From a virus (Duplodnaviria > Heunggongvirae > Uroviricota > Caudoviricetes), in IMG/VR virus record IMGVR_UViG_2703718837_000002: a stretch of DNA of 38,688 bases. One strand, 5' to 3'. Positions 9,699-31,162 of the stretch are shown here, in pieces. A program made the position numbers and the translations under genes. The notes under the pieces are model-generated. The model was not told the origin of the DNA. It was given only the letters and a program-made list of their open reading frames with translations, and made no database searches. The stretch's first letter is position 1. Each line of letters opens with the position of its first letter.

Positions 9699-9715
9699 AA
9701 ATTAATTAGAGCAAT
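9699..9715 (-). promoter_or_regulatory. C1 operator upstream of ssb
   Basis: The minus strand reads ATTGCTCTAATTAATTT, 16 of 17 matches to the C1 operator consensus ATTGCTCTAATAAATTT. It lies 20 bp upstream of the ssb start. Confidence 0.75.
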
Positions 9716-9742
9716 AATGTATATCTTTGAAACGTGGCTAAC

Positions 9743-10406: not shown

Positions 10407-10650
10407 ACTCCGGCAGCTCCGCCGACTTTCGACAATGAAGTTATCGCTGGCGGCGATAGTTTTCGACTCGATTTTCATGGCGGTATATGTGCTCAATGAG
10501 ACGTGGCCACTGGAACCGCTATTGTATGCCGGGCTTCGGCTGTGCCTGACATTTTTGAGCATGGCTGCGAGATTGATGCAACAGAAAGAAACCGCTTCAG
10601 ATTGTCCACGCCGCGCGGTGCGCAAATATATGGCACGCAGGCGAAGATGA
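10399..10650 (+). CDS. small membrane protein downstream of lyz (lydD/lydE position)
   Basis: The start overlaps the lyz stop. 83 aa with two hydrophobic segments and a basic tail. Exact equivalence to P1 lydD or lydE was not verifiable. Confidence 0.55.
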   Translation: MNKLRQLRRLSTMKLSLAAIVFDSIFMAVYVLNETWPLEPLLYAGLRLCLTFLSMAARLMQQKETASDCPRRAVRKYMARRRR

Positions 10651-10660
10651 TTTAACCATT

Positions 10661-10693
10661 ATTGCTCTAATAAATTTGATTTATTAGAGCAAA
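10661..10693. promoter_or_regulatory. paired inverted C1 operators, left end of immI-like module 1
   Basis: A perfect ATTGCTCTAATAAATTT at 10661-10677, plus an inverted copy. Together they form TTGCTCTAATAAAT-TTG-ATTTATTAGAGCAA, 14-bp perfect arms. Confidence 0.85.
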
Positions 10694-10718
10694 TAACCTA
10701 CCATCGAACACGGCTCTA

Positions 10719-10747
10719 TTGATCTCATCGTCGTTCAGGCTTATAGT
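10719..10747 (+). promoter_or_regulatory. sigma70 promoter candidate for the c4-icd-ant transcript (module 1)
   Basis: TTGATC-N17-TATAGT. Both hexamers and the spacing are conserved in module 2. A GATC lies within the -35 element. Confidence 0.55.
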
Positions 10748-10778
10748 TCCACCGTCGTAGCAAATTCTGCGACCAGGT

Positions 10779-10799
10779 TTGACAGCCTGAATACGAATG
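10779..10799 (+). promoter_or_regulatory. upstream c4-complementary site pair a1/b1 (module 1)
   Basis: TTGACAG-N7-ACGAATG. Both heptamers are exact complements of the c4 loop elements at 10904-10923. Confidence 0.55.
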
Positions 10800-10866
10800 C
10801 GGACAACCGCAGATTTCCGATATTGCGGTATTTTTGTGTCCGTAAACCACGTTACGCCCGAATTAT

Positions 10867-10943
10867 GGTGGGGCGTGATGGGGAGGCTTCGGCCTGCTGG
10901 TTTCATTCGTGCCAGTCTGTCAACCCTGTCACGTCCTGCCACC
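10867..10943 (+). ncRNA. c4: c4 antisense RNA, 77 nt (module 1)
   Basis: 77 nt. A closing stem (GGUGG...CCACC and CGUGA/UCACG), an AGGC-UUCG-GCCU hairpin, and a single-stranded CAUUCGU-GCCAGU-CUGUCAA element complementary to the sites flanking it. The size matches the published 77 nt c4 RNA. Confidence 0.8.
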
Positions 10944-10946
10944 TGT

Positions 10947-10985
10947 TTGACAGCGGGTCGCAGGTTGTTAAACCTACGAATGAGG
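10947..10985 (+). promoter_or_regulatory. c4 target a'/b' overlapping the icd ribosome binding site (module 1)
   Basis: TTGACAG-N22-ACGAATGAGG. The b' element abuts and overlaps the SD GAGG, 8 nt before the icd ATG. Confidence 0.65.
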
Positions 10986-10993
10986 CCGTAACT

Positions 10994-11215
10994 ATGGTTA
11001 ATGCCAATCCTTGCGCACGCCCTGAATTTATCTGGCGCTTTTACTCCTGCCAGAAACGTCACTATCACTTCGTAATTGCACCGACAGAAGATGAGGCCCG
11101 CTCTCTGCTTCCTGACGCTCCCTGCATTTTCTCTGCCCGCTTTTCCACTGATTCGCGCAACTCTCTCAGTTACTGGTGCCTCCCTGTTAACGCTTCTGCT
11201 CAGGAGGGACTATGA
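10994..11215 (+). CDS. icd: Icd-like 73-aa protein (module 1)
   Basis: 73 codons, the published size of P1 icd. Its stop overlaps the ant1 start (ATGA). Conserved in all three modules. Confidence 0.8.
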   Translation: MVNANPCARPEFIWRFYSCQKRHYHFVIAPTEDEARSLLPDAPCIFSARFSTDSRNSLSYWCLPVNASAQEGL

Positions 11216-12303
11216 GAACGTCATTAGTCACCCGTGAAGAAATGATTGAGGCAATTGAACAGCACACATCCTGTATCAGTACCAGGGATATACCGGGTGT
11301 TATTGCCAACTACTTCATGATCACCAAACAACTTTACCGGAGAAAGGACAAGAACGCGGTTCACCGCATTCTGTTGTCTGATATCCGCGAATACCTGCTC
11401 GAACAGGGTCGTCTTGATTATGCAACCGTAACCGCCGAAGCACGCAAGGAGGCACACAGGATGAAAGCAACTAATGTTAAATCAGAAAAAATTACCCTGC
11501 CTTCAGTTCAGGAATCCGAGCTGGTGGTTGTTCAGAATCAGTCTGATGAAATTCCCGTTCTGGAATGGCTGGGAGTGCGTGTCGTAACGACCGAAACTCT
11601 TGCTAGAGGGTATGGTACCGATGAAGCCAATATTCGTAAAAATTTGTCTCGCAACTCCGATCGCTTTGAAGAAGGCAAGCATTACTATCTCTTAACCGGT
11701 TCAAAGTTAAAGGAATTTAAAAGGCTAGTGACTATTAGTCACTTGGTTAGCAAATATACAAGTCAGGTAATTCTCTGGACAGAGCGCGGCGCTGCACGCA
11801 TGTCTAAGATCGTGGACACAAATGAAGCATGGGCATTCTTTGAAAAACTGGAAGACAGCTACTTCCGACAAAAAGAACAGCAACCGGTCTCAATTCCCCA
11901 GACGCTTCCAGAAGCTCTGCGCCTGGCTGCCGAGTTGGCAGAACAGAAAATGCAACTGGAACAACAGCTGGTGGCCGCAGCCCCTAAAGTCGATTTTGCC
12001 GACCGGGTATCAGTGGCTAAGGGGATCCTGATTGGAAATTTTGCAAAGGTTGTTGGACTTAAGCAAAACGCGCTGTTTGCCTGGTTACGGGAGAACGGCA
12101 TCCTGATTGCGTCCGGCGGACGTAAAAATGTACCGTTTCAGCAGTACATAAACGCCGGGTATTTCACGGTGAAAGAAGTGGTGCTGGATGATGAAGATGG
12201 CTACCAGATACGGTTGACGCCCCAGCTAACGGGGAAAGGCCAGCAGTGGCTGACGCGTAAACTGCTCGATGCAGGTTTATTAAAGCCTGTAGCGGCTGAG
12301 TGA
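11212..12303 (+). CDS. ant1: antirepressor Ant1 (363 aa), with in-frame Ant2 starting at 11461
   Basis: An ORF6N/KilA-N-like middle region (VRVVTTETLARGYG...RFEEGKHY) and a KilAC/ANT C-terminal domain. An internal ATG at codon 84 is preceded by AAGGAGG and gives 280 aa, consistent with P1 Ant1 (~42 kDa) and Ant2 (~32 kDa). Confidence 0.85.
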   Translation: MRTSLVTREEMIEAIEQHTSCISTRDIPGVIANYFMITKQLYRRKDKNAVHRILLSDIREYLLEQGRLDYATVTAEARKEAHRMKATNVKSEKITLPSVQESELVVVQNQSDEIPVLEWLGVRVVTTETLARGYGTDEANIRKNLSRNSDRFEEGKHYYLLTGSKLKEFKRLVTISHLVSKYTSQVILWTERGAARMSKIVDTNEAWAFFEKLEDSYFRQKEQQPVSIPQTLPEALRLAAELAEQKMQLEQQLVAAAPKVDFADRVSVAKGILIGNFAKVVGLKQNALFAWLRENGILIASGGRKNVPFQQYINAGYFTVKEVVLDDEDGYQIRLTPQLTGKGQQWLTRKLLDAGLLKPVAAE

Positions 12304-12315
12304 TTAAATTAAAAA

Positions 12316-12333
12316 GGCGGCCTTTCGGCCGCC
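12316..12333 (-). terminator. conserved module-end hairpin, minus-strand terminator
   Basis: GGCGGCC-TTTC-GGCCGCC with a T-run on the minus-strand side. An identical hairpin ends module 2. Confidence 0.5.
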
Positions 12334-12347
12334 AGTGATTTCAGATA

Positions 12348-12373
12348 CCCCGGCAGCCGCCGGGGTTATTTTT
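12348..12373 (+). terminator. intrinsic terminator after ant (module 1)
   Basis: CCCCGGC-AGCC-GCCGGGG followed by TTATTTTT. Confidence 0.6.
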
Positions 12374-12378
12374 GGTGG

Positions 12379-15109
<2,731 letters not shown>

Positions 15110-15142
15110 TTAATTAGAATAATTCACATCGTGTTTGAACGG

Positions 15143-15161
15143 AATTTAACACTAGTCACTT
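15143..15161 (-). promoter_or_regulatory. Lpa-type late promoter for prt-pro
   Basis: The minus strand reads AAGTGACTA, then N4, then TAAATT, about 40 nt upstream of the prt start. Confidence 0.6.
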
Positions 15162-15175
15162 GTTAAGGATTACCA

Positions 15176-18100
15176 ATGAACAAGCTATCTATGGGGGTGT
15201 TTCGCTGTTCAAGTGTCAGCGAAATATTGAAATATATTAGGGCAATAACATTTCGCCGAGCGCCGATTAAATACGGCGTGGAAAAGGTGGAAGGCAAAAG
15301 CTATGACCGACTGCGCCGGGAGGCGAATCAGAAGGCGATAGATTTGCTTAATTCGCTGGTGGACGGCGCGACACTGACAGATGAACAGCGCCAGATCCTG
15401 GCTGGGTACACCGGTGAAGGCGGCATTGGCGGGTCCGTCTCCGAATATTACACACCAAAGCCGATCGCTGAAGGTGTCTGGGAGATCATGAAGCTCTACG
15501 GCGCGGACGTAGGTAACACTCTGGAACCATCGGCGGGAACCGGCGTTTTTAATGAGACAAAACCGGTTGGTACGGTGATGACCGCGACTGAGATCAGCAG
15601 TGTTTCCGGTCGTATAAACCAGTTGTTACACCCGGAAGACAGCGTACAGATTTCCCCGTTCGAACAGCTGGCTATAAGCACCCCTAACGATTCATTCGAC
15701 CATGTTGTGGGTAACGTTCCGTTCGGCGGTCGTGATAACACACGCAACATCGATAAGCCTTACGCAGAAGAAACGGACATGGGTTCTTACTTCATGCTCC
15801 GCATGCTGGACAAGATAAAGCCTGGCGGATTCATGTGTGTGATTGTGCCGCCGTCAATTGTTTCAGGTTCAAACATGAAGCGGTTACGCCTGCGCCTATC
15901 CCGTAAAGCTGAATTTCTTGGCGCTCACCGCTTGCCTACCGGTACTTTTGACGCAAACGGGACCAGTACAGTCGTTGATGTGGTGCTGATGCGCAAACAT
16001 CCGGCAGAGATGGCTGAGAAAATCCCCCTGGTGGATGAAAGCACTCTTGAATCGGCAAATGTGCTTTGGCCAACGTTTATTTCTGGCAAGTGGTTTGAAA
16101 AGGACGGCCGCCGGTTTGTTCATGGTACCCAGGAAAAGGGCTTCCAGGGGCGTATTGAGGTTCGTGCCGACGGGCAGATTGATAACCAGGCTCTTAAAGC
16201 GAAGCTGATTCATCGTTTCGAAAGTCGTATCGACTGGTCTTTGCTCGATATGGCTGAACCGTCACCGACCGCAGATGTTGTTGATGAAGGGGAAATGCGC
16301 CTGATTAATGGCGTATGGCAAAAATATGCTGGTGGTCGCTGGATTGAAGCTGATGCTGGTAAGGAGCTTAAGATTGATGCTGCCAGTTATGGCGCGGATA
16401 GCTGGGAGGCTCTTCAGCGTAACCTGACTACAACAGAAGGCCGTCTCGGTATGACATTTACCCAGATGGCAAATGTCCGCGATAAGTACACCACATCAAT
16501 CAGCGACGATATGGTGCAGCTGGTGGACTGGATTAACAGCCAGCCTGAAAAATACCGTGAACGCTTGTATCGCGGGGCGATGATTGGCCGGATGTTAATT
16601 GAATATCAGGATATGAAGGCCGCTGGGCATAGTGCTGAACAAATCGAACAGCAGCGCCTTTCTCTGGTGTCCCGTTTGCAGGCAGAGATTGACCGTTTTG
16701 GTAACCCCGGTCGCGGTCCGATAGCTAAATTATCGGGAAGCGGTGCGCGCGCCTGGTTTGCTTTCCGTGGTGCAATTAAGCTGGATGGCACTATTTCTGA
16801 CGAGCTGACAGGAAAGCTGGTTACGCATGATTCCAGCGCCAGTTATGACTCCACCAGCTATCAGGACACCCTGCGTTATCTCTATAGCGATCTTACCCGC
16901 GATCCAATCCAGCTCGATGATTTCCGCCTTGCGTTTACCGGCGAACTGCCAGCCAGTGATGAAGAGTTGCTTAATTTATTGGCCAGCACCCCTGGTATTG
17001 CGGTTTCACCGTATGGCGGGATTGTTCCGTTCGCCCGCGCCACCAGCGGCGACATTAACGAGATAGTGGCTCCAAAACAGGAATTCCTTGCCACACTCCC
17101 CGACGGTCCAGTAAAGAACAACGTCCTTAATCAGCTGGCAGCGATCGAAGAGAAGCGCATCAAGACGCCAGCAGAGAATATCCGCTTTAAGCTCAATAGC
17201 CGTTGGTTCGACCGCTCCGTCATTCTGGAGTTTTTGCAGGAAAACGGCTATCCGGATCTGCGCTATGTGCAGTCAGTGCAGCTGGAAGGCGACGAAATGG
17301 TTTCTGACACCTATCACGGTGGTGATGGTCTGTTCGTCGGACACCGATACGGTGTCGTCCAGCGCAAGGATAAAGAAACAGGAGAGATCCGCTACGAGTG
17401 GGACCGTAAATCAGGTGAAAACGCGACCGGGTTCCCGGCACAGCTGGAAAAGTATCTCAATGGTGCGCGTATCGGTGGCAAAGATAGCGCGACGGCGAAC
17501 GGCTACCGCGAGCAGATGGCACTGCTTGAGGACCAGTTCAATAAGTGGATCAAGACGCACGATCGCTACGATGAGCTGGTTGCCAAATACAACGATGTGT
17601 TCAATAGCAATATCCCGTATGAACACTCTGGCGATCCGCTTGGGTTGAAGGGATTAAGCGGTAAGCGCCAGCCATTTGATTACCAGAATAGCGAGGTGCG
17701 CCGACTGTCCGAAGATGGGCGCGGCATCCTGGGCTTCGGTACCGGGCTGGGTAAAACCACGACCGCGCTGGCGCTTGAGGCGTTCAACTATGAGAACGGT
17801 CGCTCCACCCGTACTGCTTATGTAGTGCCTAAATCAGTGCTGGAAAACTGGTATTACGAAGCAAAAGAGTTCCTGAGTGAAGAAGCCTTCAGTAACTACT
17901 TGTTCGTTGGACTGGATGTACTAATGGACGGCGATCAGATTCGCCAGGTTCCGGTGCTCGATGAGAACGGTAAACCTGTCCTTGGTGCTGATGGCACTCC
18001 ACTTATGCGCGATGCCCTTAAACTGGCAGATGAAGCCACTATCACGGCGCGTATGAACGCGATCCCGCACTCAAATTACCGTGCAGTCGTGTTTACCAAA

Positions 18101-21943: not shown

Positions 21944-21976
21944 CAGGAGCGCCCGGTTCGCCGGGCGTCGCATAAT

Positions 21977-22417
21977 ATGGCCACACTATCTGATACAATA
22001 AAACCGAATAAAACATATCTTGAGGCGGTACTCCGTACAGCGTTGTTAGGAAAGACAGAAGACGAATACGTTGATTTCTTCCTGTCAGGGCTACGCGGGC
22101 GATTACTGAAAAATCCCCGCCTGTACCGCAGCTATGGTCCATACTGGCCGGAAATTAAAAAATTATTACTGGAGCGCGGTTATGGTAATTTCGGTCGTCT
22201 CGTTGACCGTGACGTTCGCAAAATTTATCGTTATGACCGCCCGGCGCTAACACTCATAGCCGCGACGCTCTACAGCCAGGAGCGTTTTGATAATGGTCAG
22301 ATATACTCAGCCTGGCATTTACTGCCAGTGCCTGAAGAAGTTGACGACCAGGACTATGAGTTTGAGTCTTACGATTTGGAAGTTGAAGCCTTGGCACAGG
22401 CTGGAGAGAAAACTTGA
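21977..22417 (+). CDS. ulx: Ulx (upstream of lxc)
   Basis: 146 aa. Located between darB and lxc, as in P1. Confidence 0.7.
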   Translation: MATLSDTIKPNKTYLEAVLRTALLGKTEDEYVDFFLSGLRGRLLKNPRLYRSYGPYWPEIKKLLLERGYGNFGRLVDRDVRKIYRYDRPALTLIAATLYSQERFDNGQIYSAWHLLPVPEEVDDQDYEFESYDLEVEALAQAGEKT

Positions 22418-22662
22418 AAAAGCGATACTACACAGTAAAGCATGGGACGCTACGAGCATTACAAGAGTTTGCTGACAAGCATAACGTTGAGGTGCGCAGG
22501 GAAGGGGGAAGTAAAGCTCTGCGCATGTACCGTCCGGACGGGAAATGGCGTACGGTCGTCGATTTCAAAACTAACAGTGTTCCCCAAGGCGTCCGCGATC
22601 GGGCATTCGAAGAATGGGAGCAGATCATCATAGATAACGCATTGCTCCTTAATGCTGATTAA
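22414..22662 (+). CDS. lxc: Lxc (Bof), C1 corepressor
   Basis: 82 codons with a TTG start after GGAGAG, overlapping the ulx stop. This matches my recollection that bof/lxc is an 82-codon gene starting with TTG. Confidence 0.8.
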   Translation: MKKRYYTVKHGTLRALQEFADKHNVEVRREGGSKALRMYRPDGKWRTVVDFKTNSVPQGVRDRAFEEWEQIIIDNALLLNAD

Positions 22663-22710
22663 TGGTTTTGTTTCCCGGTATCGTATTATACCGGGAAATA
22701 TCTTTTTATA

Positions 22711-23109
22711 TTAACCCGCGGCTGCAATTAGTGCCGACCCAACCGCCAGTGTGGTGACAAGGCCTATAATGACGACTGTAGCTGTTACCCCACCTGCAAC
22801 AGCTGCTCCAGTCTTTGTTTTGGATAACTCTTTCTTTTCTAGAGAAATGATTTCACCCATAGGAATAGACTGGTTGTTAATACCATTGATATATTGTGGG
22901 GTAACGTTCGATACTGTCATTTCACCTTCGCTACCTGATTTTAACTTGTATTTAATTAGGTCACCAGCATATATCGGTGGCTCTGTTAAATAATAGGTAC
23001 TTCTTTCAAGGTTTTTTTGCTTTATGTTAACTCCTTGATAAGACTGACATCCACATAACACAAGTGATAAAATTAGCGTCATCAGTAAATTTCTTTTATT
23101 TTTTATCAT
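22711..23109 (-). CDS. lipoprotein with a C-terminal Gly/Ala-rich hydrophobic segment
   Basis: ATG at 23109 after AAGGAGAAGGAG. The signal peptide carries a lipobox (LVLCGC). The C-terminal segment is TGAAVAGGVTATVVIIGLVTTLAVGSALIAAAG. The gene is AT-rich relative to its flanks. Confidence 0.75.
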   Translation of the reverse strand: MIKNKRNLLMTLILSLVLCGCQSYQGVNIKQKNLERSTYYLTEPPIYAGDLIKYKLKSGSEGEMTVSNVTPQYINGINNQSIPMGEIISLEKKELSKTKTGAAVAGGVTATVVIIGLVTTLAVGSALIAAAG

Positions 23110-23243
23110 TGTCTGCACTCCTTCTCCTTTTCTTTGTATAGCTAAAACAAATCATTTATTCTTGTCAAATAGTTTTTAGTTTGAGAGTGAGGTTTACGTG
23201 ACGATGCTCTAAAAGTTGCAGATAGCGGTAAAGATAATTTTAT

Positions 23244-23885
23244 TTACAATATGTTACCTTTTCCGGTAAGTATACCTTGCGGTACTTTTCTTTCCCCCAT
23301 AAGTTGAGTGGCATGAATGATATTAATAAATGACATTAGTTGTGATGAACTCTGATTCACATTTATCTTTCCAGCCATTGCCCTGATGTAGTCAGCGCTG
23401 GCAACGTTGTTGTATTCCGTTGCGAAGCAGCATAACAACGTCAGAACGTGCTCTGTCGTTATTTCACTCCAGTTGATGTTGAAAAATTCATCGCCTTTTT
23501 TGTCGTGTTCGGAATCGAAGATGCTTTGGTGGAGGATATATTTGCCGGATTCCTTGCGCGGTAACTTTATCGCTTTCTGGCGTTCCAATTCCTTGTAAAT
23601 CTGCATTGCTTCAATCAGTACCGGTCTGCCGTTCATGAAGGGATCACGCAACCTTACACGCTGGCCAACTCGACCGGTAATAAAGCTGTTTTCCTCTTCC
23701 ACCAGCACGATAAAACCCTTTTCCTCTTTTTCTCGCAATTCGCGCAGCAGCTGGAGTTCCATATCGCGGCGGCGCTCAGGGTAGCTGGTCCGCTCAGCCA
23801 TTATCAGCTCATTGTTGATCCATGCAGCAGTCATTGACGCCGGTTTGCCGACGCTCATTGAAACAACGCATATTTTCTTATCCAT
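23244..23885 (-). CDS. hypothetical protein (213 aa), possibly the P1 mat counterpart by position
   Basis: ATG at 23885 with AGGGG 5 nt upstream is preferred over GTG at 23912. A late-promoter box lies upstream. No motif recognised, and identity to Mat could not be verified. Confidence 0.7.
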   Translation of the reverse strand: MDKKICVVSMSVGKPASMTAAWINNELIMAERTSYPERRRDMELQLLRELREKEEKGFIVLVEEENSFITGRVGQRVRLRDPFMNGRPVLIEAMQIYKELERQKAIKLPRKESGKYILHQSIFDSEHDKKGDEFFNINWSEITTEHVLTLLCCFATEYNNVASADYIRAMAGKINVNQSSSQLMSFINIIHATQLMGERKVPQGILTGKGNIL

Positions 23886-24014
23886 AGCGCCCCTACAAAA
23901 AAGAAAAGCCACCAGCGGCGGCTTAGCAAAACAACTGAAGGTAGCGCCCGGTACTCAGACTGTGCCGTCCATGGAATATTTGAAAAGGGATCCATCCGTA
24001 CCGGGCGTGTGATG

Positions 24015-24033
24015 ATTCTGACTCAAGTCACTT
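24015..24033 (-). promoter_or_regulatory. Lpa-type late promoter candidate for orf213
   Basis: The minus strand reads AAGTGACTT, a perfect 9-bp palindrome (extendable to CAAGTGACTTG), then N4, then CAGAAT. Confidence 0.45.
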
Positions 24034-24066
24034 GTCAGTTGTCAATTATTTCAGATTAAAAATAAT

Positions 24067-24083
24067 ATATTTATTAGTGCATA
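24067..24083 (-). promoter_or_regulatory. variant C1 operator-like site
   Basis: The minus strand reads TATGCACTAATAAATAT. It shares ATGCACTAATAAAT with the site at 28477-28493 upstream of c1. Confidence 0.35.
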
Positions 24084-24144
24084 CAATTAAAACAATAAGT
24101 GTGCACATTGCAACCTCGGAGAGGAAACATTCAACCAGATTGTT

Positions 24145-24161
24145 ATTGCTCTAATAAATTT
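24145..24161 (+). promoter_or_regulatory. C1 operator, left end of immI-like module 2
   Basis: A perfect ATTGCTCTAATAAATTT. The inverted partner seen in module 1 is degenerate here (TTATTGAAACAA). Confidence 0.85.
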
Positions 24162-24202
24162 GATTTATTGAAACAAATAAACTACTATTGGACGCCAGAC
24201 TA

Positions 24203-24231
24203 TTGATCTTCCTGTTGTTCAGGCTTATAGT
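24203..24231 (+). promoter_or_regulatory. sigma70 promoter candidate for c4-icd-ant (module 2)
   Basis: TTGATC-N17-TATAGT, with hexamers identical to module 1. Confidence 0.55.
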
Positions 24232-24262
24232 TCCTACGTCATAGCAAATTCTGCGACCGGGT

Positions 24263-24283
24263 TTAGCAGCCTGAATGTACATG
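24263..24283 (+). promoter_or_regulatory. upstream c4-complementary site pair a1/b1 (module 2)
   Basis: TTAGCAG-N7-GTACATG, exact complements of the c4 elements at 24389-24408. Confidence 0.55.
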
Positions 24284-24351
24284 CGGACAACCGCAGATTT
24301 CCGATATTGCGGTATTTTTATGTCCGTAAAACCGCGTTACGCCCGAATTAT

Positions 24352-24428
24352 GGTGGGGCGTGATGGGGAGGCTTCGGCCTGCTGGTTTCATGTACGCCAG
24401 TCTGCTAACCCCGTCACGTCCTGCCACC
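24352..24428 (+). ncRNA. c4: c4 antisense RNA, 77 nt (module 2, different specificity)
   Basis: The same scaffold as module 1. The recognition elements read CAUGUAC and CUGCUAA instead of CAUUCGU and CUGUCAA. Confidence 0.8.
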
Positions 24429-24431
24429 TGT

Positions 24432-24470
24432 TTAGCAGCGGGTAGCAGGTTGTTAAACCTGTACATGAGG
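24432..24470 (+). promoter_or_regulatory. c4 target a'/b' overlapping the icd ribosome binding site (module 2)
   Basis: TTAGCAG-N22-GTACATGAGG, with the SD GAGG 8 nt before the icd ATG. Confidence 0.65.
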
Positions 24471-24478
24471 CCGTAACT

Positions 24479-24700
24479 ATGGTTAATGCCAATCCTTGCG
24501 CACGCCCTGAATTTATCTGGCGCTTCTATTCTTGTCAAAAACGTCACTATCACTTCGTTATCGCACCAACAGAAGATGAGGCACGTTCTCAGCTTCCGGA
24601 TGCTCCCTGCATTTTCTCCGCCCGCTTTTCTACCGATTCGCGCAATTCTCTCAGTTACTGGTGCCTCCCTGTTAACGCTTCGGCTCAGGAGGGGCTATGA
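24479..24700 (+). CDS. icd: Icd-like 73-aa protein (module 2)
   Basis: 73 codons, differing from the module 1 copy at one residue (L/Q). ATGA overlap with ant1. Confidence 0.8.
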   Translation: MVNANPCARPEFIWRFYSCQKRHYHFVIAPTEDEARSQLPDAPCIFSARFSTDSRNSLSYWCLPVNASAQEGL

Positions 24701-25809
24701 GAACGTCATTAGTCACCCGTGAAGAGATGATCGAGGCAATTGAACAGCACACTGCCTGTATCAGTACCAGGGATATACCAGGTGTTATTGCCAACTACTT
24801 CATGATCACCAAACAACTTTACCGGAGAAAGGACAAGAACGCGGTTCACCGCATTCTGCTAACCGATATCCGTGAATACCTGCTCGAACAGGGTCATCTG
24901 AATTATGCAACCGTCGCAGCCGAAGCACGCAAGGAGGCACACAGAATGAAAGCAACTAACGTTAAATCAGAAAAAATTCATGCACCTTCAGTTCAGGAAT
25001 CAGAGCTGGTGGTTGTTCAGAATCAGCCTGATGAAATTCCCGTTCTGGAATGGCAGGGAGTACGTGTCGTGACAACCGAAACTCTTGCTAGAGGGTATGG
25101 GACCGAAACTAATAACATCAAAGTTAACTATACGCGTAATGCTGATCGCTTTGAGGAAGGTAAACATTACTTTCTACTAACTGGTTCAAAATTAAAAGAA
25201 TTGAAGGACAAGGTTACTCAAAGTAACTTAGTCGCACCGCGAGCAAAGCACCTCACTCTCTGGACGGAACGCGGCGCAGCCCGCCACGCTAAAATGATCG
25301 AAACCGATCAGGCATGGGCATTCTTTGAAAAACTGGAAGACAGCTACTTCCGACAAAAAGAACAGCAACCGGTTGCAATCCCCCAGACGCTTCCAGAAGC
25401 CCTGCGCCTGGCTGCCGAACTGGCTGAACAAAAGCAACTTCTGGAACAGAAAGCCCACCAGCTAAATCAGCAGCTGGTGGCCGCAGCCCCCAAAGTCGAT
25501 TTTGCCGACCGGGTATCAGTGGCCAAGGGGATCCTGATTGGGAATTTTGCAAAGGTTGTTGGACTTAAGCAAAACGCGCTGTTTGCCTGGTTACGGGAGA
25601 ACGGCATCCTGATAGCGTCCGGCGGACGTAAAAATGTGCCGTTCCAGCAATACATCAACGCCGGGTATTTTTCTGTGAAAGAAGTGGTGCTGGATGATGA
25701 AGATGGCTATCAGATACGACTGACGCCCCAGTTAACGGGGAAAGGCCAGCAGTGGTTGACGCGTAAACTGCTCGATGCTGGCTTGTTAAAACCGGTGGCG
25801 GCTGAGTGA
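24697..25809 (+). CDS. ant1: antirepressor Ant1 (370 aa), with in-frame Ant2 starting at 24946
   Basis: The same architecture as module 1. The central ~65 aa are divergent, and there is a 7-aa insertion in the coiled-coil linker. Confidence 0.85.
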   Translation: MRTSLVTREEMIEAIEQHTACISTRDIPGVIANYFMITKQLYRRKDKNAVHRILLTDIREYLLEQGHLNYATVAAEARKEAHRMKATNVKSEKIHAPSVQESELVVVQNQPDEIPVLEWQGVRVVTTETLARGYGTETNNIKVNYTRNADRFEEGKHYFLLTGSKLKELKDKVTQSNLVAPRAKHLTLWTERGAARHAKMIETDQAWAFFEKLEDSYFRQKEQQPVAIPQTLPEALRLAAELAEQKQLLEQKAHQLNQQLVAAAPKVDFADRVSVAKGILIGNFAKVVGLKQNALFAWLRENGILIASGGRKNVPFQQYINAGYFSVKEVVLDDEDGYQIRLTPQLTGKGQQWLTRKLLDAGLLKPVAAE

Positions 25810-25817
25810 TTAAAAAA

Positions 25818-25835
25818 GGCGGCCTTTCGGCCGCC
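25818..25835 (-). terminator. conserved module-end hairpin (module 2)
   Basis: GGCGGCC-TTTC-GGCCGCC with T6 on the minus-strand side. Identical to 12316-12333. Confidence 0.5.
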
Positions 25836-25888
25836 AATGATGTCACGGAGTCTGTAATAGCAATGTCTTTGTAGTTGACTAATTATAT

Positions 25889-25905
25889 AAATAAATTATA
25901 GCAAT
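25889..25905 (-). promoter_or_regulatory. degenerate C1 operator with an embedded TATAAT, orphan promoter-operator
   Basis: The minus strand reads ATTGCTATAATTTATTT, 14 of 17 matches. It points toward the 3' end of module 2, where P1 has ref. Confidence 0.35.
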
Positions 25906-26015
25906 TATATGTGGTTTGCTTATCGGGAATCACATTTCCTCACTTCAGTACCTATGTGCTATACTCCTTTTTGATTGATTGATTGGATGCGGAACACAAA
26001 CCCGCTCTTTTGTGC

Positions 26016-26042
26016 AGCCTGGCTCCTTGCCAGGCTTTTTTT
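26016..26042 (+). terminator. intrinsic terminator (+ strand) abutting the cra stop
   Basis: AGCCTGGC-TCCTT-GCCAGGCT followed by T7. Confidence 0.65.
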
Positions 26043-26352
26043 ATTTCATCATGGAAGCTGTTAACGCTTTGGACCTTGCTGAACTGATTGAAAGGACATT
26101 GTTAACCTTACCCAAGAGTTCGCCAAACTCAGACATCACTTTAGCAAAACCACGCCGTGCTTCTTCCTCGGTGGCATTCATCACGAAATGTTCAGCACTA
26201 CGCATACTTTTGACAGGGAACGCAACGGATATTGAGTCAATATCAGGCATTCTATCGCTCAGCTTTACAGTGACAATGACGGCTGGCGACTGAATATTAG
26301 TGCTTACAGACAGCACTACATATTTTACGTCGATGTTGAAATCCTTTCTCAT
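26041..26352 (-). CDS. cra: Cra (cre-associated) protein
   Basis: A 103 aa ORF 51 bp downstream of cre on the same strand, as in P1. Confidence 0.65.
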   Translation of the reverse strand: MRKDFNIDVKYVVLSVSTNIQSPAVIVTVKLSDRMPDIDSISVAFPVKSMRSAEHFVMNATEEEARRGFAKVMSEFGELLGKVNNVLSISSARSKALTASMMK

Positions 26353-26368
26353 ATGTCACCATAAATAT

Positions 26369-26385
26369 CAAATAATTAGAGCAAT
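26369..26385 (-). promoter_or_regulatory. C1 operator-like site between cre and cra
   Basis: The minus strand reads ATTGCTCTAATTATTTG, 14 of 17 matches with a perfect left half. Confidence 0.5.
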
Positions 26386-26402
26386 CATTTGCACGTTAAA
26401 GG

Positions 26403-27434
26403 CTAATCGCCATCTTCCAGCAGGCGCACCATTGCCCCTGTTTCACTATCCAGGTTACGGATATAGTTCATGACAATATTTACGTTGGTCCAGCCACCAG
26501 CTTGCATGATCTCCGGTATTGAAACTCCGGCGCGGGCCATATCTCGCGCGGCTCCGACACGGGCACTGTGTCCAGACCAGGCCAGGTACCTCTGGCCAGA
26601 GTCATCCTTAGCCCCGTAAATCAATCGGTGAATTGCTTCAAAAATCCCTTCCAGGGCGCGAGTTGATAGCTGGCTGGTGGATGATGGCGCGGCAACACCA
26701 TTTTTTCTGACCCGGCAAAACAGGTAGTTATTCGGATCATCAGCTACACCAGAGACAGAAATCCATCGCTCGACCAGTTTAGTTACCCCCAGGCTAAGTG
26801 CCTTCTCTACACCTGCGGTGCTAACCAGCGTTTTCGTTCTGCCAATATGGATTAACATTCTCCCACCGTCAGTACGTGAGATATCTTTAACCCTGATCCT
26901 GGAAATTTCGGCTATACGTAACAGGGTGTTATAAGCAATCCCCAGAAATGCCAGATTACGTATATCCTGGCAGCGATCGCTATTTTCCATGAGTGAACGA
27001 ACCTGGTCGAAATCAGTGCGTTCGAACGCTAGTGCCTGTTTTGCACGTTCACCGGCATCAACGTTTTCTTTTCGGATCCGCCGCATGACCAGTGAAACAG
27101 CATTGCTGTCACTTGGTCGTGGCAGCCCGGACCGACGATGAAGCATGTTTAGCTGGCCCAAATGTTGCTGGATAGTTTTCACAGCCAGACCACGCGCCTG
27201 AAGATATAGAAGGTAATCGCGAACATCTTCAGGTTCTGCGGGAAACCATTTCCGGTTATTCAACTTGCACCATGCCGCCCACGACCGGCAAACGGACAGA
27301 AGCATTTTCCAGGTATGCTCAGAAAACGCCTGGCGATCCCTGAACATGTCCATCAGATTCTTGCGAGCCTCATCACTCGTTGCATCGACCGGTAATGCAG
27401 GCAAATTTTGGTGTACGGTCAGTAAATTGGACAT
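26403..27434 (-). CDS. cre: Cre tyrosine recombinase
   Basis: 343 aa beginning MSNLLTVHQNLPALPVDATSDE and ending RLLEDGD. It differs from the P1 Cre sequence as I recall it at only a few positions. Confidence 0.99.
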   Translation of the reverse strand: MSNLLTVHQNLPALPVDATSDEARKNLMDMFRDRQAFSEHTWKMLLSVCRSWAAWCKLNNRKWFPAEPEDVRDYLLYLQARGLAVKTIQQHLGQLNMLHRRSGLPRPSDSNAVSLVMRRIRKENVDAGERAKQALAFERTDFDQVRSLMENSDRCQDIRNLAFLGIAYNTLLRIAEISRIRVKDISRTDGGRMLIHIGRTKTLVSTAGVEKALSLGVTKLVERWISVSGVADDPNNYLFCRVRKNGVAAPSSTSQLSTRALEGIFEAIHRLIYGAKDDSGQRYLAWSGHSARVGAARDMARAGVSIPEIMQAGGWTNVNIVMNYIRNLDSETGAMVRLLEDGD

Positions 27435-27441
27435 TTAACAC

Positions 27442-27663
27442 TCAGATAATGGTTTTAAGTAAAGTGTACAGGATCGGCTCTGCCTTTACCTGTTTATGGT
27501 TCTCGTCATAGAAACGCCAGCGACCGCGCGTGCGTTCTATTTTCTCTTCACCGCGCGATAATGACAGTTGACAACTATCACGATCAAACCCTTTTGCCCG
27601 CCAGTAACCACGGTTTTTCTCAAGCTCAATATGAGTGGACACTTTAGCAGCTGAATATCCCAT
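27442..27663 (-). CDS. 73-aa ORF immediately upstream of cre
   Basis: Strong SD GAGGTG 5 nt before the ATG. The stop lies 7 nt before the cre ATG. Function unknown. Confidence 0.6.
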   Translation of the reverse strand: MGYSAAKVSTHIELEKNRGYWRAKGFDRDSCQLSLSRGEEKIERTRGRWRFYDENHKQVKAEPILYTLLKTII

Positions 27664-27760
27664 TTTTCACCTCTGATTGATTGGTGGTGCTAAGTGCGCT
27701 ACGCGAAATCTGGAGCACTAACACTGCCAACATTTCGCAGATTTTACGTAGCGCAACCTT

Positions 27761-27780
27761 GATCAAATGATCAAGTGATC
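27761..27780. promoter_or_regulatory. cluster of three GATC (Dam) sites in the cre upstream region
   Basis: GATCAAATGATCAAGTGATC. Dam-sensitive cre promoter activity is described for P1. Confidence 0.5.
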
Positions 27781-27852
27781 ACTATTTGAGCTGATAAGGT
27801 ATTGAACTGTATGGATTTACAGGTAAATTAATTATGTTCAATAACCCTTAAT

Positions 27853-27886
27853 ATAACTTCGTATAATGTATGCTATACGAAGTTAT
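27853..27886 (+). other. loxP: loxP recombination site
   Basis: An exact ATAACTTCGTATA-ATGTATGC-TATACGAAGTTAT, 34 bp. Confidence 0.99.
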
Positions 27887-27929
27887 TAGGTCTGAAGAGG
27901 AGTTTACGTCCAGCTGCGCATAAAAATCA

Positions 27930-27946
27930 AGAATTATTAGAGCAAT
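27930..27946 (-). promoter_or_regulatory. C1 operator (immC cluster)
   Basis: The minus strand reads ATTGCTCTAATAATTCT, 15 of 17 matches. Confidence 0.65.
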
Positions 27947-28012
27947 AAATTTTGAGAGAAAAATCCCACTCCACCAGCCAAAAACTGGATTGTTTTTCAT
28001 AGTTGTTTGACA

Positions 28013-28029
28013 ATTGCTCTAATAAATTA
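28013..28029 (+). promoter_or_regulatory. C1 operator overlapping a promoter reading toward coi and c1
   Basis: ATTGCTCTAATAAATTA, 16 of 17 matches. TTGACA lies immediately upstream (28007-28012) and TATAGT at 28028-28033. Confidence 0.8.
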
Positions 28030-28267
28030 TAGTTTTGCCGCCGTTTCGTAATACGACTTTGGATTCACTATTTAATGTGTCTTCAGCGTTGTAGAGCGGC
28101 TCAGAAGGAAATGAGCAAACAGGGAAACCTTATACAACGGCATTACAGCTATGCATTGCTCATCTTACACACAGCGCAATGTTGTTAGATTACCCCAGCA
28201 TGGATCATGGGTGAAACAGTAGGTCAGAGCTTCAGGCTCTGTGTTGTCAATACAGTGAGGCATAATT

Positions 28268-28477
28268 ATGGCTTTCATTCCACCAACCATCGACGACGTT
28301 AGACATTGCTCTAACGCTTTATCTGTAGACCCCGCCGAAACCGACGCTGCCCGCGCCATTGCTGAACACTACTCAAAGATATCCAATCAGGAGTACCGCA
28401 TCACCCAAGACGACCTGGATGATCTCACTGACACAATCGAATATCTCATGGCCACTAACCAGCCAGACTCACAATAA
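28268..28477 (+). CDS. coi: Coi, C1 inactivator
   Basis: 69 aa, the size of P1 Coi. It lies directly upstream of c1 on the same strand, with GAGG 8 nt before the ATG. Confidence 0.85.
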   Translation: MAFIPPTIDDVRHCSNALSVDPAETDAARAIAEHYSKISNQEYRITQDDLDDLTDTIEYLMATNQPDSQ

Positions 28478-28493
28478 ATGCACTAATAAATCT
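28477..28493 (+). promoter_or_regulatory. variant C1 operator upstream of c1
   Basis: AATGCACTAATAAATCT, 14 of 17 matches. Confidence 0.5.
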
Positions 28494-28523
28494 ATTATTT
28501 TCGTTGGATCCTTCTATAATGGT

Positions 28524-28564
28524 GGCCAACAACTCCCAGTGTAATCCGCTGTGAGTTGTTGGCC
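28524..28564 (+). promoter_or_regulatory. 12-bp perfect stem-loop just upstream of the c1 ribosome binding site
   Basis: GGCCAACAACTC-N17-GAGTTGTTGGCC. No T-run follows. It ends 13 nt before GGAGGAGG. Confidence 0.5.
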
Positions 28565-28587
28565 ATGTCAATTCTGGAGGAGGATCA

Positions 28588-29439
28588 ATGATAAATTATG
28601 TCTACGGCGAACAACTGTACCAGGAGTTCGTCAGCTTCAGGGATCTCTTTCTAAAAAAAGCTGTTGCACGCGCCCAACACGTTGATGCCGCCAGCGACGG
28701 TCGTCCTGTTCGCCCGGTTGTCGTTCTGCCGTTCAAAGAAACGGACAGCATTCAGGCTGAAATTGATAAATGGACTTTAATGGCGCGGGAACTGGAACAG
28801 TACCCAGACCTCAATATCCCAAAGACTATTTTATATCCAGTGCCTAACATCCTTCGCGGTGTGCGTAAGGTTACAACTTATCAGACAGAAGCTGTGAACA
28901 GCGTCAACATGACCGCTGGCCGCATTATTCATCTGATTGATAAGGACATTCGCATCCAGAAAAGCGCGGGGATCAATGAGCACAGTGCGAAATACATAGA
29001 GAACCTGGAAGCAACAAAAGAGCTAATGAAGCAGTACCCGGAGGATGAAAAATTCCGTATGCGTGTACACGGCTTTAGCGAAACAATGCTGCGCGTCCAT
29101 TACATTTCCAGTAGCCCTAACTACAATGATGGTAAATCAGTTAGTTACCATGTGCCGCTGTGTGGTGTGTTTATCTGCGATGAAACTCTCCGTGATGGAA
29201 TCATCATCAACGGTGAATTCGAGAAAGCAAAATTTAGCCTTTATGACTCTATAGAACCGATCATCTGCGACCGCTGGCCGCAGGCAAAAATATATCGCCT
29301 GGCAGATATTGAAAATGTAAAAAAACAAATTGCCATCACTCGCGAAGAGAAAAAGGTCAAATCAGCCGCATCAGTTACGCGCAGCCGTAAAACCAAGAAG
29401 GGGCAGCCAGTAAACGACAACCCCGAAAGCGCGCAATAA
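28588..29439 (+). CDS. c1: C1 repressor of lysis
   Basis: 283 aa, the size of P1 C1. SD GGAGGAGG. Located next to coi and the operator cluster. Confidence 0.97.
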   Translation: MINYVYGEQLYQEFVSFRDLFLKKAVARAQHVDAASDGRPVRPVVVLPFKETDSIQAEIDKWTLMARELEQYPDLNIPKTILYPVPNILRGVRKVTTYQTEAVNSVNMTAGRIIHLIDKDIRIQKSAGINEHSAKYIENLEATKELMKQYPEDEKFRMRVHGFSETMLRVHYISSSPNYNDGKSVSYHVPLCGVFICDETLRDGIIINGEFEKAKFSLYDSIEPIICDRWPQAKIYRLADIENVKKQIAITREEKKVKSAASVTRSRKTKKGQPVNDNPESAQ

Positions 29440-29442
29440 ATT

Positions 29443-29465
29443 ATGCCCGGCATCAACCGGGCATT
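29443..29465. terminator. bidirectional hairpin between convergent c1 and ant (module 3)
   Basis: TGCCCGG-N6-CCGGGCA, T-rich on both sides. It sits 3 nt after the c1 stop and 7 nt after the ant stop. Confidence 0.6.
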
Positions 29466-29471
29466 CTTCCA

Positions 29472-30584
29472 TTATTCAGCCGCCACCGGTTTTAACAAGC
29501 CAGCATCGAGCAGTTTACGCGTCAACCACTGCTGGCCTTTACCCGTTAATTGGGGCGTCAGCCGTATCTGGTAGCCATTTTCATCATCCAGCACCACTTC
29601 TTTCACCGTGAAATACCCCGCGTTGATGTACTGCTGGAACGGCACATTTTTACGTCCACCGGACGCTATCAGGATGCCGTTCTCCCGTAACCAGACAAAC
29701 AGCGCGTTTTGCTTAAGTCCAACAACCTTTGCAAAATTCCCAATCAGGATCCCTTTAGCTACTGATACCCGGTCGGCAAAATCGACTTTAGGAGCGGCGG
29801 CCACCAGCTGCTGATTTAGCTGGTGGGCTTTCTGTTCCAGAAGTTGCTTTTGTTCAGCCAGCTCGGCAGCCAGACGCAGGGCTTCTGGAAGCGTCTGGGG
29901 GATTGCGATCGGTTGCTGTTCTTTTTGTCGGAAGTAGTTGTCTTCCAGTTTTTCAAAGAATGCCCATGCTTCATTTGTGTCCACGATCTTAGACATGCGT
30001 GCAGCGCCGCGCTCTGTCCAGAGTGTAAGGCTTCTGGCGTTCTTACCAACAGAGTAACTTCCGGTTACTCTGTTCTTAAATTCTCTTAATTTTAAACCAG
30101 TTAGAAGAAAGTAATGCTTACCTTCTTCAAAGCGGTCAAGGTTGCGAGACAAATTGTTGCGAATATTGGCTTCATCGACCCCATACCCTCTAGCAAGAGT
30201 TTCGGTTGTCACGACACGTACTCCCTGCCATTCCAGAACGGGAATTTCATCCGGCTGATTCTGAACAACCACCAGCTCTGATTCCTGAACTGAAGGTGCA
30301 TAAATTTTTTCTGATTTAACGTTAGTTGCTTTCATTCTGTGTGCCTCCTTGCGTGCTTCGGCTGCGACGGTTGCGTAATTCAGATGACCCTGTTCGAGCA
30401 GGTATTCACGGATATCGGTTAGCAGAATGCGGTGAACCGCGTGTTTGTCCTTTCTCCGGTAAAGTTGTTTGGTGATCATGAAGTAGTTGGCAATAACGCC
30501 CGGTATATCCTTGGTACTGATACAGGCAGTGTGCTGTTCAATTGCCTCGATCATCTCTTCACGGGTGACTAATGACGTTCTCAT
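29472..30584 (-). CDS. ant1: antirepressor Ant1 (370 aa), with in-frame Ant2 starting at 30335 (module 3)
   Basis: The same architecture as modules 1 and 2. A third variant of the central region. AAGGAGG precedes the internal ATG. Confidence 0.85.
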   Translation of the reverse strand: MRTSLVTREEMIEAIEQHTACISTKDIPGVIANYFMITKQLYRRKDKHAVHRILLTDIREYLLEQGHLNYATVAAEARKEAHRMKATNVKSEKIYAPSVQESELVVVQNQPDEIPVLEWQGVRVVTTETLARGYGVDEANIRNNLSRNLDRFEEGKHYFLLTGLKLREFKNRVTGSYSVGKNARSLTLWTERGAARMSKIVDTNEAWAFFEKLEDNYFRQKEQQPIAIPQTLPEALRLAAELAEQKQLLEQKAHQLNQQLVAAAPKVDFADRVSVAKGILIGNFAKVVGLKQNALFVWLRENGILIASGGRKNVPFQQYINAGYFTVKEVVLDDENGYQIRLTPQLTGKGQQWLTRKLLDAGLLKPVAAE

Positions 30585-30802
30585 AGTCCCTCCTGAGCAG
30601 AAGCGTTAACAGGGAGGCACCAGTAACTGAGAGAGTTGCGCGAATCAGTGGAAAAGCGGGCAGAGAAAATGCAGGGAGCGTCAGGAAGCTGAGAACGGGC
30701 CTCATCTTCTGTCGGTGCAATAACGAAGTGATAGTGACGTTTCTGGCAGGAATAGAAGCGCCAGATGAATTCAGGATGAGTTGGGGTAGGGACAGTAGCC
30801 AT
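30581..30802 (-). CDS. icd: Icd-like 73-aa protein (module 3, variant N-terminus)
   Basis: 73 codons. The first 9 residues differ (MATVPTPTH versus MVNANPCAR) and the rest is essentially identical. ATGA overlap with ant1. Confidence 0.75.
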   Translation of the reverse strand: MATVPTPTHPEFIWRFYSCQKRHYHFVIAPTEDEARSQLPDAPCIFSARFSTDSRNSLSYWCLPVNASAQEGL

Positions 30803-30810
30803 AATGGCAG

Positions 30811-30852
30811 CCTCCTTTGACTAAGTTAAGGAGCTACCGCGTGAGGTCTCAA
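30811..30852 (-). promoter_or_regulatory. target a'/b' overlapping the icd ribosome binding site (module 3)
   Basis: The minus strand reads TTGAGAC-N24-GTCAAAGGAGG. Both elements complement the loop of the RNA at 30860-30938. The SD GGAGG is included. Confidence 0.6.
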
Positions 30853-30859
30853 TCTCAAT

Positions 30860-30938
30860 GGCGGTAGCACTGACTGGGTTGAGACTACCGGCGTCAAAGG
30901 GAACCGGCCTGCCTTTCGGCAGCCCAGCCAGCACTACC
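30860..30938 (-). ncRNA. c4-analogous antisense RNA on an unrelated scaffold (module 3)
   Basis: About 76-79 nt. A 13-bp closing stem (GGUAGUGCUGGCU / AGUCAGUGCUACC, including G-U pairs), a CUGCC-GAAA-GGCAG hairpin, and the single-stranded elements CCCUUUGAC and GUCUCAA. Confidence 0.65.
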
Positions 30939-30985
30939 ATTGATTTCGGAGCTAAACGCTACGTATGGCTGTGCGATGGCATGAC

Positions 30986-31011
30986 ACAAAAAAAAGACGC
31001 TTTCGGCGTCT
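30986..31011 (-). terminator. intrinsic terminator inside the module 3 leader, between the decoy site and the RNA gene
   Basis: The minus strand reads AGACGC-CGAAA-GCGTCT followed by T8. Confidence 0.55.
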
Positions 31012-31017
31012 GTGTCG

Positions 31018-31042
31018 CCTTTGACATTATTCGGGGTCTCAA
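31018..31042 (-). promoter_or_regulatory. upstream complementary site pair a1/b1 (module 3)
   Basis: The minus strand reads TTGAGAC-N10-GTCAAAGG. Confidence 0.5.
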
Positions 31043-31142
31043 TCCCGGCACCCGTTTTAATGAGGTGCCTGATAAGCATAAACCGAAAATGCCTCAAGGC
31101 GCAAGAGGTCAGGTTCAATGTAACATCGGCAGTTAAAAAACA

Positions 31143-31159
31143 CAATTTATTAGAGCAAA
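31143..31159 (-). promoter_or_regulatory. C1 operator, start of module 3, abutting the pacB stop
   Basis: The minus strand reads TTTGCTCTAATAAATTG, 15 of 17 matches. Confidence 0.7.
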
Positions 31160-31162
31160 TAT

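Follow-up and report, generated by a model that had tools for sequence, protein, structure and literature searches.

Three immI-type antirepressor modules, each consisting of c4, icd and the nested genes ant1/ant2, were found in a 38,688-nucleotide (nt) stretch of DNA (IMG/VR record IMGVR_UViG_2703718837_000002; the window, below, is this whole stretch) which is a segment of a P1-like phage-plasmid. Whereas the canonical locus of P1 and P7 lies between sim and kilA-repL, these modules occupy lydD-pro, the place of ref, and c1-pacB, with three copies in the window and probably four per replicon. We consider it probable that each unit is an autonomous immI-type cassette and that their stacking confers orthogonal immunity. 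In P1 and P7, the C4 RNA at a2/b2 blocks translation of icd and, via coupling, also that of Ant1/Ant2, which inactivates the C1 repressor (NC_005856 and PMC6906374). Silencing by C4 and inactivation of C1 would proceed in the same way in the modules of the window, and each C4 RNA should silence its own cassette only, since the three recognition codes carried by the C4 loops are mutually mismatched.

By alignment with the annotated P1 locus, the elements of the modules follow the P1/P7 order of operator, promoter, a1/b1, c4, a2/b2, icd and ant1/ant2, with the same C1 operator and the same promoter (Table 1). The preliminary description of this DNA had proposed three paralogous units, each opened by a C1-operator match and a structured leader RNA and followed by a 73-codon open reading frame (ORF) whose stop overlaps as ATGA the start of a 363- or 370-codon ORF, itself with an internal ATG at codon 84. 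All of these elements were recovered, and only the boundaries shifted, reaching from a few to about 60 base pairs (bp) beyond those first given. The operators, two of them perfect and one with 2 mismatches, fall in the same alignment column as P1 Oc4, and C1-operator-like sites (consensus ATTGCTCTAATAAATTT) number 12 in the window against 0.22 expected. The structured RNA belongs to the Rfam family C4 (RF01695), as in P1/P7: the three matches cover the full-length model, 1-87, and score 69.8-75.4 bits, the gathering score being 45 (46.7 for c4-a1b1, RF03163, and 50 for isrK, RF01394). The 73-codon ORF is icd in all three modules, its product sharing 54-60 of 73 residues with P1 Icd (phrog_1426, E 1e-45 to 1e-47), and the ATGA overlap leads from its stop into ant1. 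Codon 84 of every Ant, preceded by CGCAAGGAGGCACACAG, is an in-frame ATG (M84 is invariant) behind AAGGAGG and is the nested start of Ant2; the calculated masses are 41.3-42.0 kDa for Ant1 and 31.5-32.3 kDa for Ant2. The 73-codon Icd, the ATGA coupling, the nesting of Ant2 at M84 behind AAGGAGG and the KilAC C-terminus are all shared with the P1/P7 locus.

In the Rfam search, module 3 matched an IsrK-family element instead of the RF03163 a1b1 element. This isrK match has exact a1/b1 complements of the adjacent C4 RNA, which implies, from the sequence, that the IsrK family and the c4-a1b1 motif would be functional equivalents. The Rfam search output places the two in no common clan.

The recognition code of each C4 RNA, written a'/b', is CTGTCAA/CATTCGT in module 1, CTGCTAA/CATGTAC in module 2 and GTCTCAA/CCTTTGAC in module 3. 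Modules 1 and 2 have the C4 scaffold of P1/P7, from which the sequence scaffold of module 3 differs. In P1, the loops a' CTGTCAA and b' CACTAAC pair with a2/b2 at the icd ribosome-binding site and with the upstream a1/b1 (NC_005856), and the loops read from the P7 record are CTGCTAA/CACAATC. In each of the three modules a1, b1, a2 and b2 are exact reverse complements of the module's own loops, and each code is mismatched at the b site to the other two modules, to P1 and to P7, none being of the P1 or P7 type. The three c4 specificities that had been anticipated therefore exist as three distinct a'/b' pairs, each exact to its own targets. Duplex energies of the bare sites, calculated for P1, P7 and modules 1-3, were about -6.5 to -9.8 kcal/mol for cognate sites and +1.5 to -1.7 kcal/mol for non-cognate b sites.

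The same organisation was found well beyond the window. IMG/VR was scanned twice with exact patterns, and with the window and the fetched reference records added the total came to 201 modules, mostly from IMG/VR, with 16 a'/b' combinations. Seven b' and two a' alleles were counted on scaffold A and two of each kind on scaffold B, and a third scaffold (C), first seen in the Escherichia albertii plasmid pEA50_2, adds one combination, which brings the total to at least 17 codes. Of the 740 cognate a1, b1, a2 and b2 sites in the 185 modules whose flanks are complete, 739 matched exactly, and 1480 b-type and 555 a-type non-cognate comparisons yielded no a2/b2 match. The IMG/VR contigs are not phylogenetically independent; each code is still internally consistent at its four sites. 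By position, the canonical sim-kilA site has at least 7 codes, pacB-c1 has all four scaffold-B codes and mat-c8 at least 5, and further modules lie at lyz-pro, at mat-lxc and in contexts that do not look like P1. It was also observed that ref-like sequence is the nearest upstream P1-related gene of 21 scaffold-B modules of IMG/VR, and that 13 scaffold-A modules have darB-like sequence downstream; these contexts, unlike the five P1 sites, may represent D6-like or chromosomal prophages.

Several points weigh against the reading of the modules as orthogonal cassettes. The a' loop is common to module 1 and P1, and likewise to module 2 and P7, the differences lying at the b site, and full orthogonality from a b-site difference alone is putative; moreover, pMTY1886 has two modules that differ at a' only. 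Pairs of co-resident modules with identical codes numbered 2 of 66, where 5.4 +/- 2.2 would be expected (P ~0.08, the null taking no account of site or phylogeny). Before the addition of scaffold C the count was 1 of 43 (P ~0.11), and avoidance of identical codes by co-resident modules is suggestive only, weakly supported, and is not claimed here. More modules would also mean more ways to self-induce. Finally, the central 130-140 residues of the Ants are just 22-25% identical to P1 Ant, and because of this C1 might not be their sole target. With respect to the identical-code pairs, one consists of tandem scaffold-C C4 genes 1.5 kb apart (IMG/VR contig 2698536372_000019, about 1001-2587), and the other, on contig 3300045988_157941, lies ~50 kb apart and may be an assembly repeat.

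The Ant proteins were compared with P1 Ant1 part by part. Identity is ~58% over the first 96 residues and 85-93% over the C-terminal 135 residues (KilAC), and the diverged central region matches ORF6N in the three window Ants, a domain for which P1 Ant1 gives no match. Full-length orthology to P1 Ant was not found, and the diverged ORF6N region therefore marks the Ants as domain-swap variants and not straightforward orthologues. The reading as immI-type modules that had been proposed is supported at the sequence level, the operator, the C4 RNA, Icd and the N-terminal and KilAC parts of Ant all aligning with their P1 counterparts. Among the three paralogues, too, variation is greatest in the central region, where 100-109 of 139 residues are identical. 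A search of the PDB with Ant gave no matches, no solved structure being related by sequence, and PADLOC gave weak matches of the ORF6N region to PDC-S05 (E ~5e-6), which we did not take as evidence of a defence system.

These proteins raise the possibility that the ectopic Ants with a swapped ORF6N are not redundant inactivators of C1 but act on other targets, such as the repressors of other resident prophages or other C1 alleles, resulting in cross-induction or "prophage crosstalk" in place of heteroimmunity of the P1 type. A central region unrelated to P1 Ant, with ORF6N only in the window proteins and with the greatest variability among the paralogues, would be expected of such a function; trans-acting antirepressors with several target repressors are known from Salmonella Gifsy prophages (PMC3121763; for IsrK-AnrP, PMC4825925), and scaffold-B modules also occur in apparently non-P1 contexts. 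Nevertheless, each module starts with a C1 operator, the KilAC domain is highly conserved with P1 Ant, the Ant1/Ant2 nesting is kept and the modules travel with P1-type C1 backbones. We regard this explanation as unlikely, and the c1 product encoded in the window is presumed to be the common target of the Ants.

The modules are themselves mosaics. Their copies correspond to the repeat families D1-D5 and I1-I5, with repeats of 0.6-0.7 kb at 90-96% identity, and the leader of module 3 shares 35-52% identity with leaders 1 and 2, against 90-100% in places for the coding regions; this is the pattern to be expected from recombination that homogenises the genes and leaves the codes distinct. The ratios dN/dS of 0.01-0.34 for icd and 0.15-0.26 for ant indicate that all module copies are under purifying selection. 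Modules 2 and 3 were seen to be 96% identical over 601 nt (24506-25106 versus 30175-30775, from about codon 10 of icd into ant), which exceeds the identity of either with the same-site module of pEA50_2 (92-95%) and for this reason suggests an intragenomic gene conversion between them, ending at the leader.

It could also be supposed that the extra modules are passive hot-spot cargo, duplicates spread by recombination that bring no benefit beyond the canonical immI. The sites are known variable RD regions of P1-like plasmids (PMC6906374), where sibling plasmids hold SIR2, DUF2971, TnpB and HigB; in addition, the within-genome distinctness of the codes was not significant and one IMG/VR contig carries a same-code tandem duplicate. 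Passive cargo, on the other hand, accounts poorly for intact ORFs with the low dN/dS given above, for a four-site complementarity of 739/740 across 17 codes, for leaders that differ while coding regions are homogenised, and for the frequency of multi-module genomes, and we find this explanation more doubtful still than that of other targets. That the three copies are an assembly artefact of collapsed or chimeric repeats is effectively excluded, since repeats of this length and identity could mislead short-read assemblers but the leaders, codes and flanks are unique to each copy, the same three junctions recur in the independent complete plasmid pEA50_2, and individual junctions appear in many other records.

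The positions of the modules were established by local blastn against P1, which bore out the ectopic placement given in the preliminary description (between the lysis genes and pro, at the position of ref, and in the c1-pacB interval) and the lack of sim and kilA-repL in the window. Module 1 is inserted between P1 coordinates 20085 and 20065, in the lydD/lydE-pro interval, at the lydD end. Module 2 lies where P1 has the ref ORF (2070-2628), which it replaces in opposite orientation; the operators of ref and mat and the ref promoter are all kept at its flanks. In the case of module 3, it is the 24 bp separating the convergent genes c1 and pacB that have been replaced. A GGCGGCC-NNNN-GGCCGCC hairpin is common to the ends of modules 1 and 2, and its P1 counterpart is at about 2046-2066, between the ref promoter and the ref ATG. 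Because both modules end in a hairpin found upstream of the P1 ref start, the sequence suggests that module 1 derives from the ref-site cassette, and the hairpin may be a cassette boundary or a recombination point. Downstream of module 2 the retained ref promoter/operator is at about 25889-25905, and the hairpin at 25818-25835 would stop transcription from this promoter before it runs antisense into the module. The C1 operators as crossover points were considered for module 2 and not supported: P1 Omat is kept separately at ~24066-24083, and the operator of the module lies 62 bp further in. At the site of module 1, the putative antiholin gene lydE (10500-10655, +) loses its C-terminus to the module, with ~49 residues against 71 in P1, and lydD is intact.

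The closest complete relative is pEA50_2 (circular, 100,730 bp), in which the same three ectopic sites are filled; the region of module 1 is 99.1% identical over 5.4 kb, and modules 2 and 3 fall together in one alignment of 10.6 kb at 94.7%. As pEA50_2 has a canonical icd-ant-kilA-repL locus besides the three ectopic ones, with four codes that are all different, a fourth, canonical immI copy is likely to exist outside the window. Regions with the three sites were common, the 23-kb region being covered to at least 80% in 135 PLSDB records and 149 complete Escherichia coli genomes. A query with icd-ant found 1198 places in 738 E. coli records, a single record having at most four; among 60 evenly spaced entries, one copy was present in 27, two in 25, three in 4 and four in 4. 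At least two modules are thus carried by about 55%, and three or four by about 13%, of the sampled P1-like E. coli records. Modules at the lydD/lyz-pro site, that of module 1, are rare (11 of the 637 matching PLSDB records), and RCS47, JL22, 673R5 and phi456 gave two places each in the BLAST search.

Automatic annotation routinely labels the copies "host cell division inhibitor Icd-like protein" and "phage antirepressor KilAC domain-containing protein". Venturini et al. mention extra copies, including that of RCS47, and note that the res-mod region of pSvP1 has homologues of icd-ant1/2 (PMC6906374), and a second c4-icd region is described in the D6-like plasmid pYU39_89 (PMC6799933). The reports of extra copies (RCS47, pTZ20_1P, pSvP1, pYU39_89) are descriptive, without C4 codes, a1/b1-a2/b2 matches or the Ant domain swap. 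We found no specific literature on the function or the codes of multiple immI copies, or on heteroimmunity, in P1-like plasmids, a prior description by Gilcrease and Casjens 2018 (on D6/P1 diversity) not being excluded. The novelty attributed at first to a genome with several immI copies does not hold, because multi-module genomes are common and already mentioned in the literature; an unprecedented arrangement was rejected on the frequency of the copies in E. coli records and on these mentions, and the stacked modules are an under-studied arrangement and not a new discovery.

Considering the window as a whole, it was placed by local BLAST against phage P1 and by database searches. The backbone shared with P1 is 94-98% identical, the best database matches are ~96% identical overall, and the gene order is darA-ddrA-ddrB, ssb, lyz-lydD, pro, prt, darB, ulx-lxc, mat, c8, cre, coi, c1, pacB, pacA, lpa, pdcB, doc-phd, with res-mod and ref absent and no sim, kilA or repL. 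The coordinates of the features are collected in Table 1.

Table 1. Coordinates of the three modules and of the associated features in the window.
Feature	Position	Strand	Remarks
Module 1	10647-12346	+	c4-icd-ant1/ant2
Module 1 C1 operator	10661-10677	+	perfect 17-mer match
Module 1 second operator copy	10677-10693		inverted, overlapping, 3 mismatches
Module 1 sigma-70 promoter	10719-10747	+	TTGATC-17-TATAGT; homologous to P1 promoter P1c4 (P51b)
Module 1 a1b1 element	10741-10799	+	RF03163 match 10741-10793, 57.1 bits
Module 1 a1	10779-10785	+	TTGACAG
Module 1 b1	10793-10799	+	ACGAATG
Module 1 C4 RNA	10861-10946	+	RF01695, 69.8 bits
Module 1 b' loop	10904-10910	+	
Module 1 a' loop	10917-10923	+	
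Module 1 a2	10947-10953	+	
Module 1 b2	10976-10982	+	abuts icd Shine-Dalgarno GAGG
Module 1 icd	10994-11215	+	73 codons; 59/73 identical to P1 Icd
Module 1 ant1	11212-12303	+	363 aa; N-terminal region, ORF6N, KilAC; nested ant2 from 11461
Module 1 3' boundary	12316-12333	-	GGCGGCC hairpin; terminator for - strand
Backbone terminator after module 1	12347-12366	+	
Module 2	24083-25811	+	c4-icd-ant1/ant2
Module 2 C1 operator	24145-24161	+	perfect 17-mer
Module 2 promoter	24203-24231	+	TTGATC-17-TATAGT; homologous to P1c4
Module 2 a1b1 element	24225-24283	+	RF03163 match 24225-24277, 47.5 bits
Module 2 a1	24263-24269	+	TTAGCAG
Module 2 b1	24277-24283	+	GTACATG
Module 2 C4 RNA	24346-24431	+	RF01695, 70.8 bits
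Module 2 b' loop	24389-24395	+	
Module 2 a' loop	24402-24408	+	
Module 2 a2	24432-24438	+	
Module 2 b2	24461-24467	+	
Module 2 icd	24479-24700	+	73 codons
Module 2 ant1	24697-25809	+	370 aa; ant2 from 24946
Module 2 3' hairpin	25818-25835	-	GGCGGCC; T-run on - strand
c1 repressor	28588-29439	+	product differs from P1 c1.100 product at no more than 1 position
Hairpin between convergent c1 and module 3 ant	29443-29464	not assigned	
Module 3	29439-31164	-	c4-icd-ant1/ant2
Module 3 C1 operator	31143-31159	-	TTTGCTCTAATAAATTG; 2 mismatches
Module 3 IsrK-family leader RNA	30990-31068	-	RF01394, 59.8 bits, model positions 1-77
Module 3 a1	31036-31042	-	TTGAGAC; inside IsrK-family leader
Module 3 b1	31018-31025	-	GTCAAAGG; inside IsrK-family leader
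Module 3 IsrK-like leader intrinsic terminator	31011-30995	-	followed by T8
Module 3 C4 RNA	30857-30944	-	RF01695, 75.4 bits
Module 3 b' loop	30893-30900	-	
Module 3 a' loop	30879-30885	-	
Module 3 a2	30846-30852	-	
Module 3 b2	30814-30821	-	overlaps icd Shine-Dalgarno AAGGAGG
Module 3 icd	30581-30802	-	73 codons
Module 3 ant1	29472-30584	-	370 aa; ant2 from 30335

Some other features of the window were observed. The overlapping inverted operator pair of module 1 resembles a bivalent operator, and a 40-nt inverted repeat, 83% complementary, links the ssb/lyz C1 operator region (9680-9719) with the operator of module 1 (10657-10696). The window lacks res and mod, which in P1 encode type III restriction-modification, and the lxc-mat interval (22663-23243) has a single 135-aa ORF (22711-23118, -) with no Pfam or PADLOC match. 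Between ssb and ddrB/hxr, a variable spot where P1 has isaA-IS1, a 225-aa ORF (8311-8988, -) carries a domain resembling Tad2 (Thoeris anti-defence 2; Pfam PF11195, E 1.6e-22); the adjacent 260-aa ORF (7522-8304, -) gave no Pfam or PADLOC match. At the position of P1 humD a 99-aa ORF (36397-36696, -) has a weak partial Peptidase_S24 match, below cut-off (E 5e-4), and may be a truncated humD.

Two known systems resemble parts of the modules. As in the isrK-orf45-anrP-isrJ locus of Gifsy-1 (PMC4825925), the leader of module 3 fits the IsrK family including its terminator, and a short leader RNA precedes a small ORF with an AUGA overlap with the antirepressor gene; in Gifsy-1, the translation of the antirepressor depends on the small ORF (Hershko-Shalev et al. 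2016). The systems differ in that IsrK of Gifsy-1 is a trans-acting activator and that paper describes no separate C4 RNA, whereas module 3 has a C4 RNA between the IsrK-like element and icd, exact a1/b1 complements in the leader, a C1 operator and P1-type Icd and Ant. The CI RNA of P4 with its seqA-seqB sites is likewise a processed small leader RNA that pairs with two short complementary sites of the same transcript family and shuts off downstream lytic genes, and it is cited as a structural homologue of IsrK; compared by the description in that paper (PMC4825925), it differs in that it terminates transcription of replication genes and involves neither Icd nor an antirepressor.

By sequence and homology, each cassette has a C1-operated and a constitutive promoter for a leader that holds the C4 RNA of ~77 nt and, upstream of it, an a1b1 element resembling a decoy (of IsrK type in module 3). 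The a'/b' loops of the C4 RNA are complementary to a2/b2 at the icd ribosome-binding site, and icd leads into the ATGA-coupled ant1/ant2. By analogy with the IsrK findings of Hershko-Shalev et al., the a1b1 and IsrK-like leader RNAs may be cognate anti-C4 decoys. In the model that we propose, the element as a prophage would silence the antirepressors of superinfecting relatives that use any of its three, and probably four, codes. As an invader it would express every Ant whose code the resident lacks, and because unmatched Ants are expressed it would break C1 immunity unless the resident matches all codes. The cassettes sit in hot spots between genes that are filled by defence cargo in sibling plasmids, and purifying selection keeps them intact; recombination would homogenise their coding parts, the RNA codes staying different.

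With a confidence that falls a little short of even, we extend this model to a combinatorial RNA lock-and-key, with at least 17 codes, three C4 scaffolds, at least five exchangeable hot spots and up to four stacked modules. The code set of an element would decide which relatives it resists as a prophage and which residents it induces as an invader, an arms race would proceed by accumulation of cassettes, and the leaders may act as cognate anti-C4 decoys, making each cassette a three-RNA switch. The value of the finding lies in a testable model of stacked RNA-coded immunity and not in the existence of the copies, which are visible in hundreds of records. In E. coli, Salmonella and their relatives, resistance genes often travel on P1-like phage-plasmids. 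If the model is true, a plasmid's network of superinfection and induction would be predictable from its list of C4 codes, and the two-member model of P1/P7 heteroimmunity would extend to a large natural family, whose covarying a1/b1/a'/b'/a2/b2 sets would be a ready-made library of orthogonal antisense regulators.

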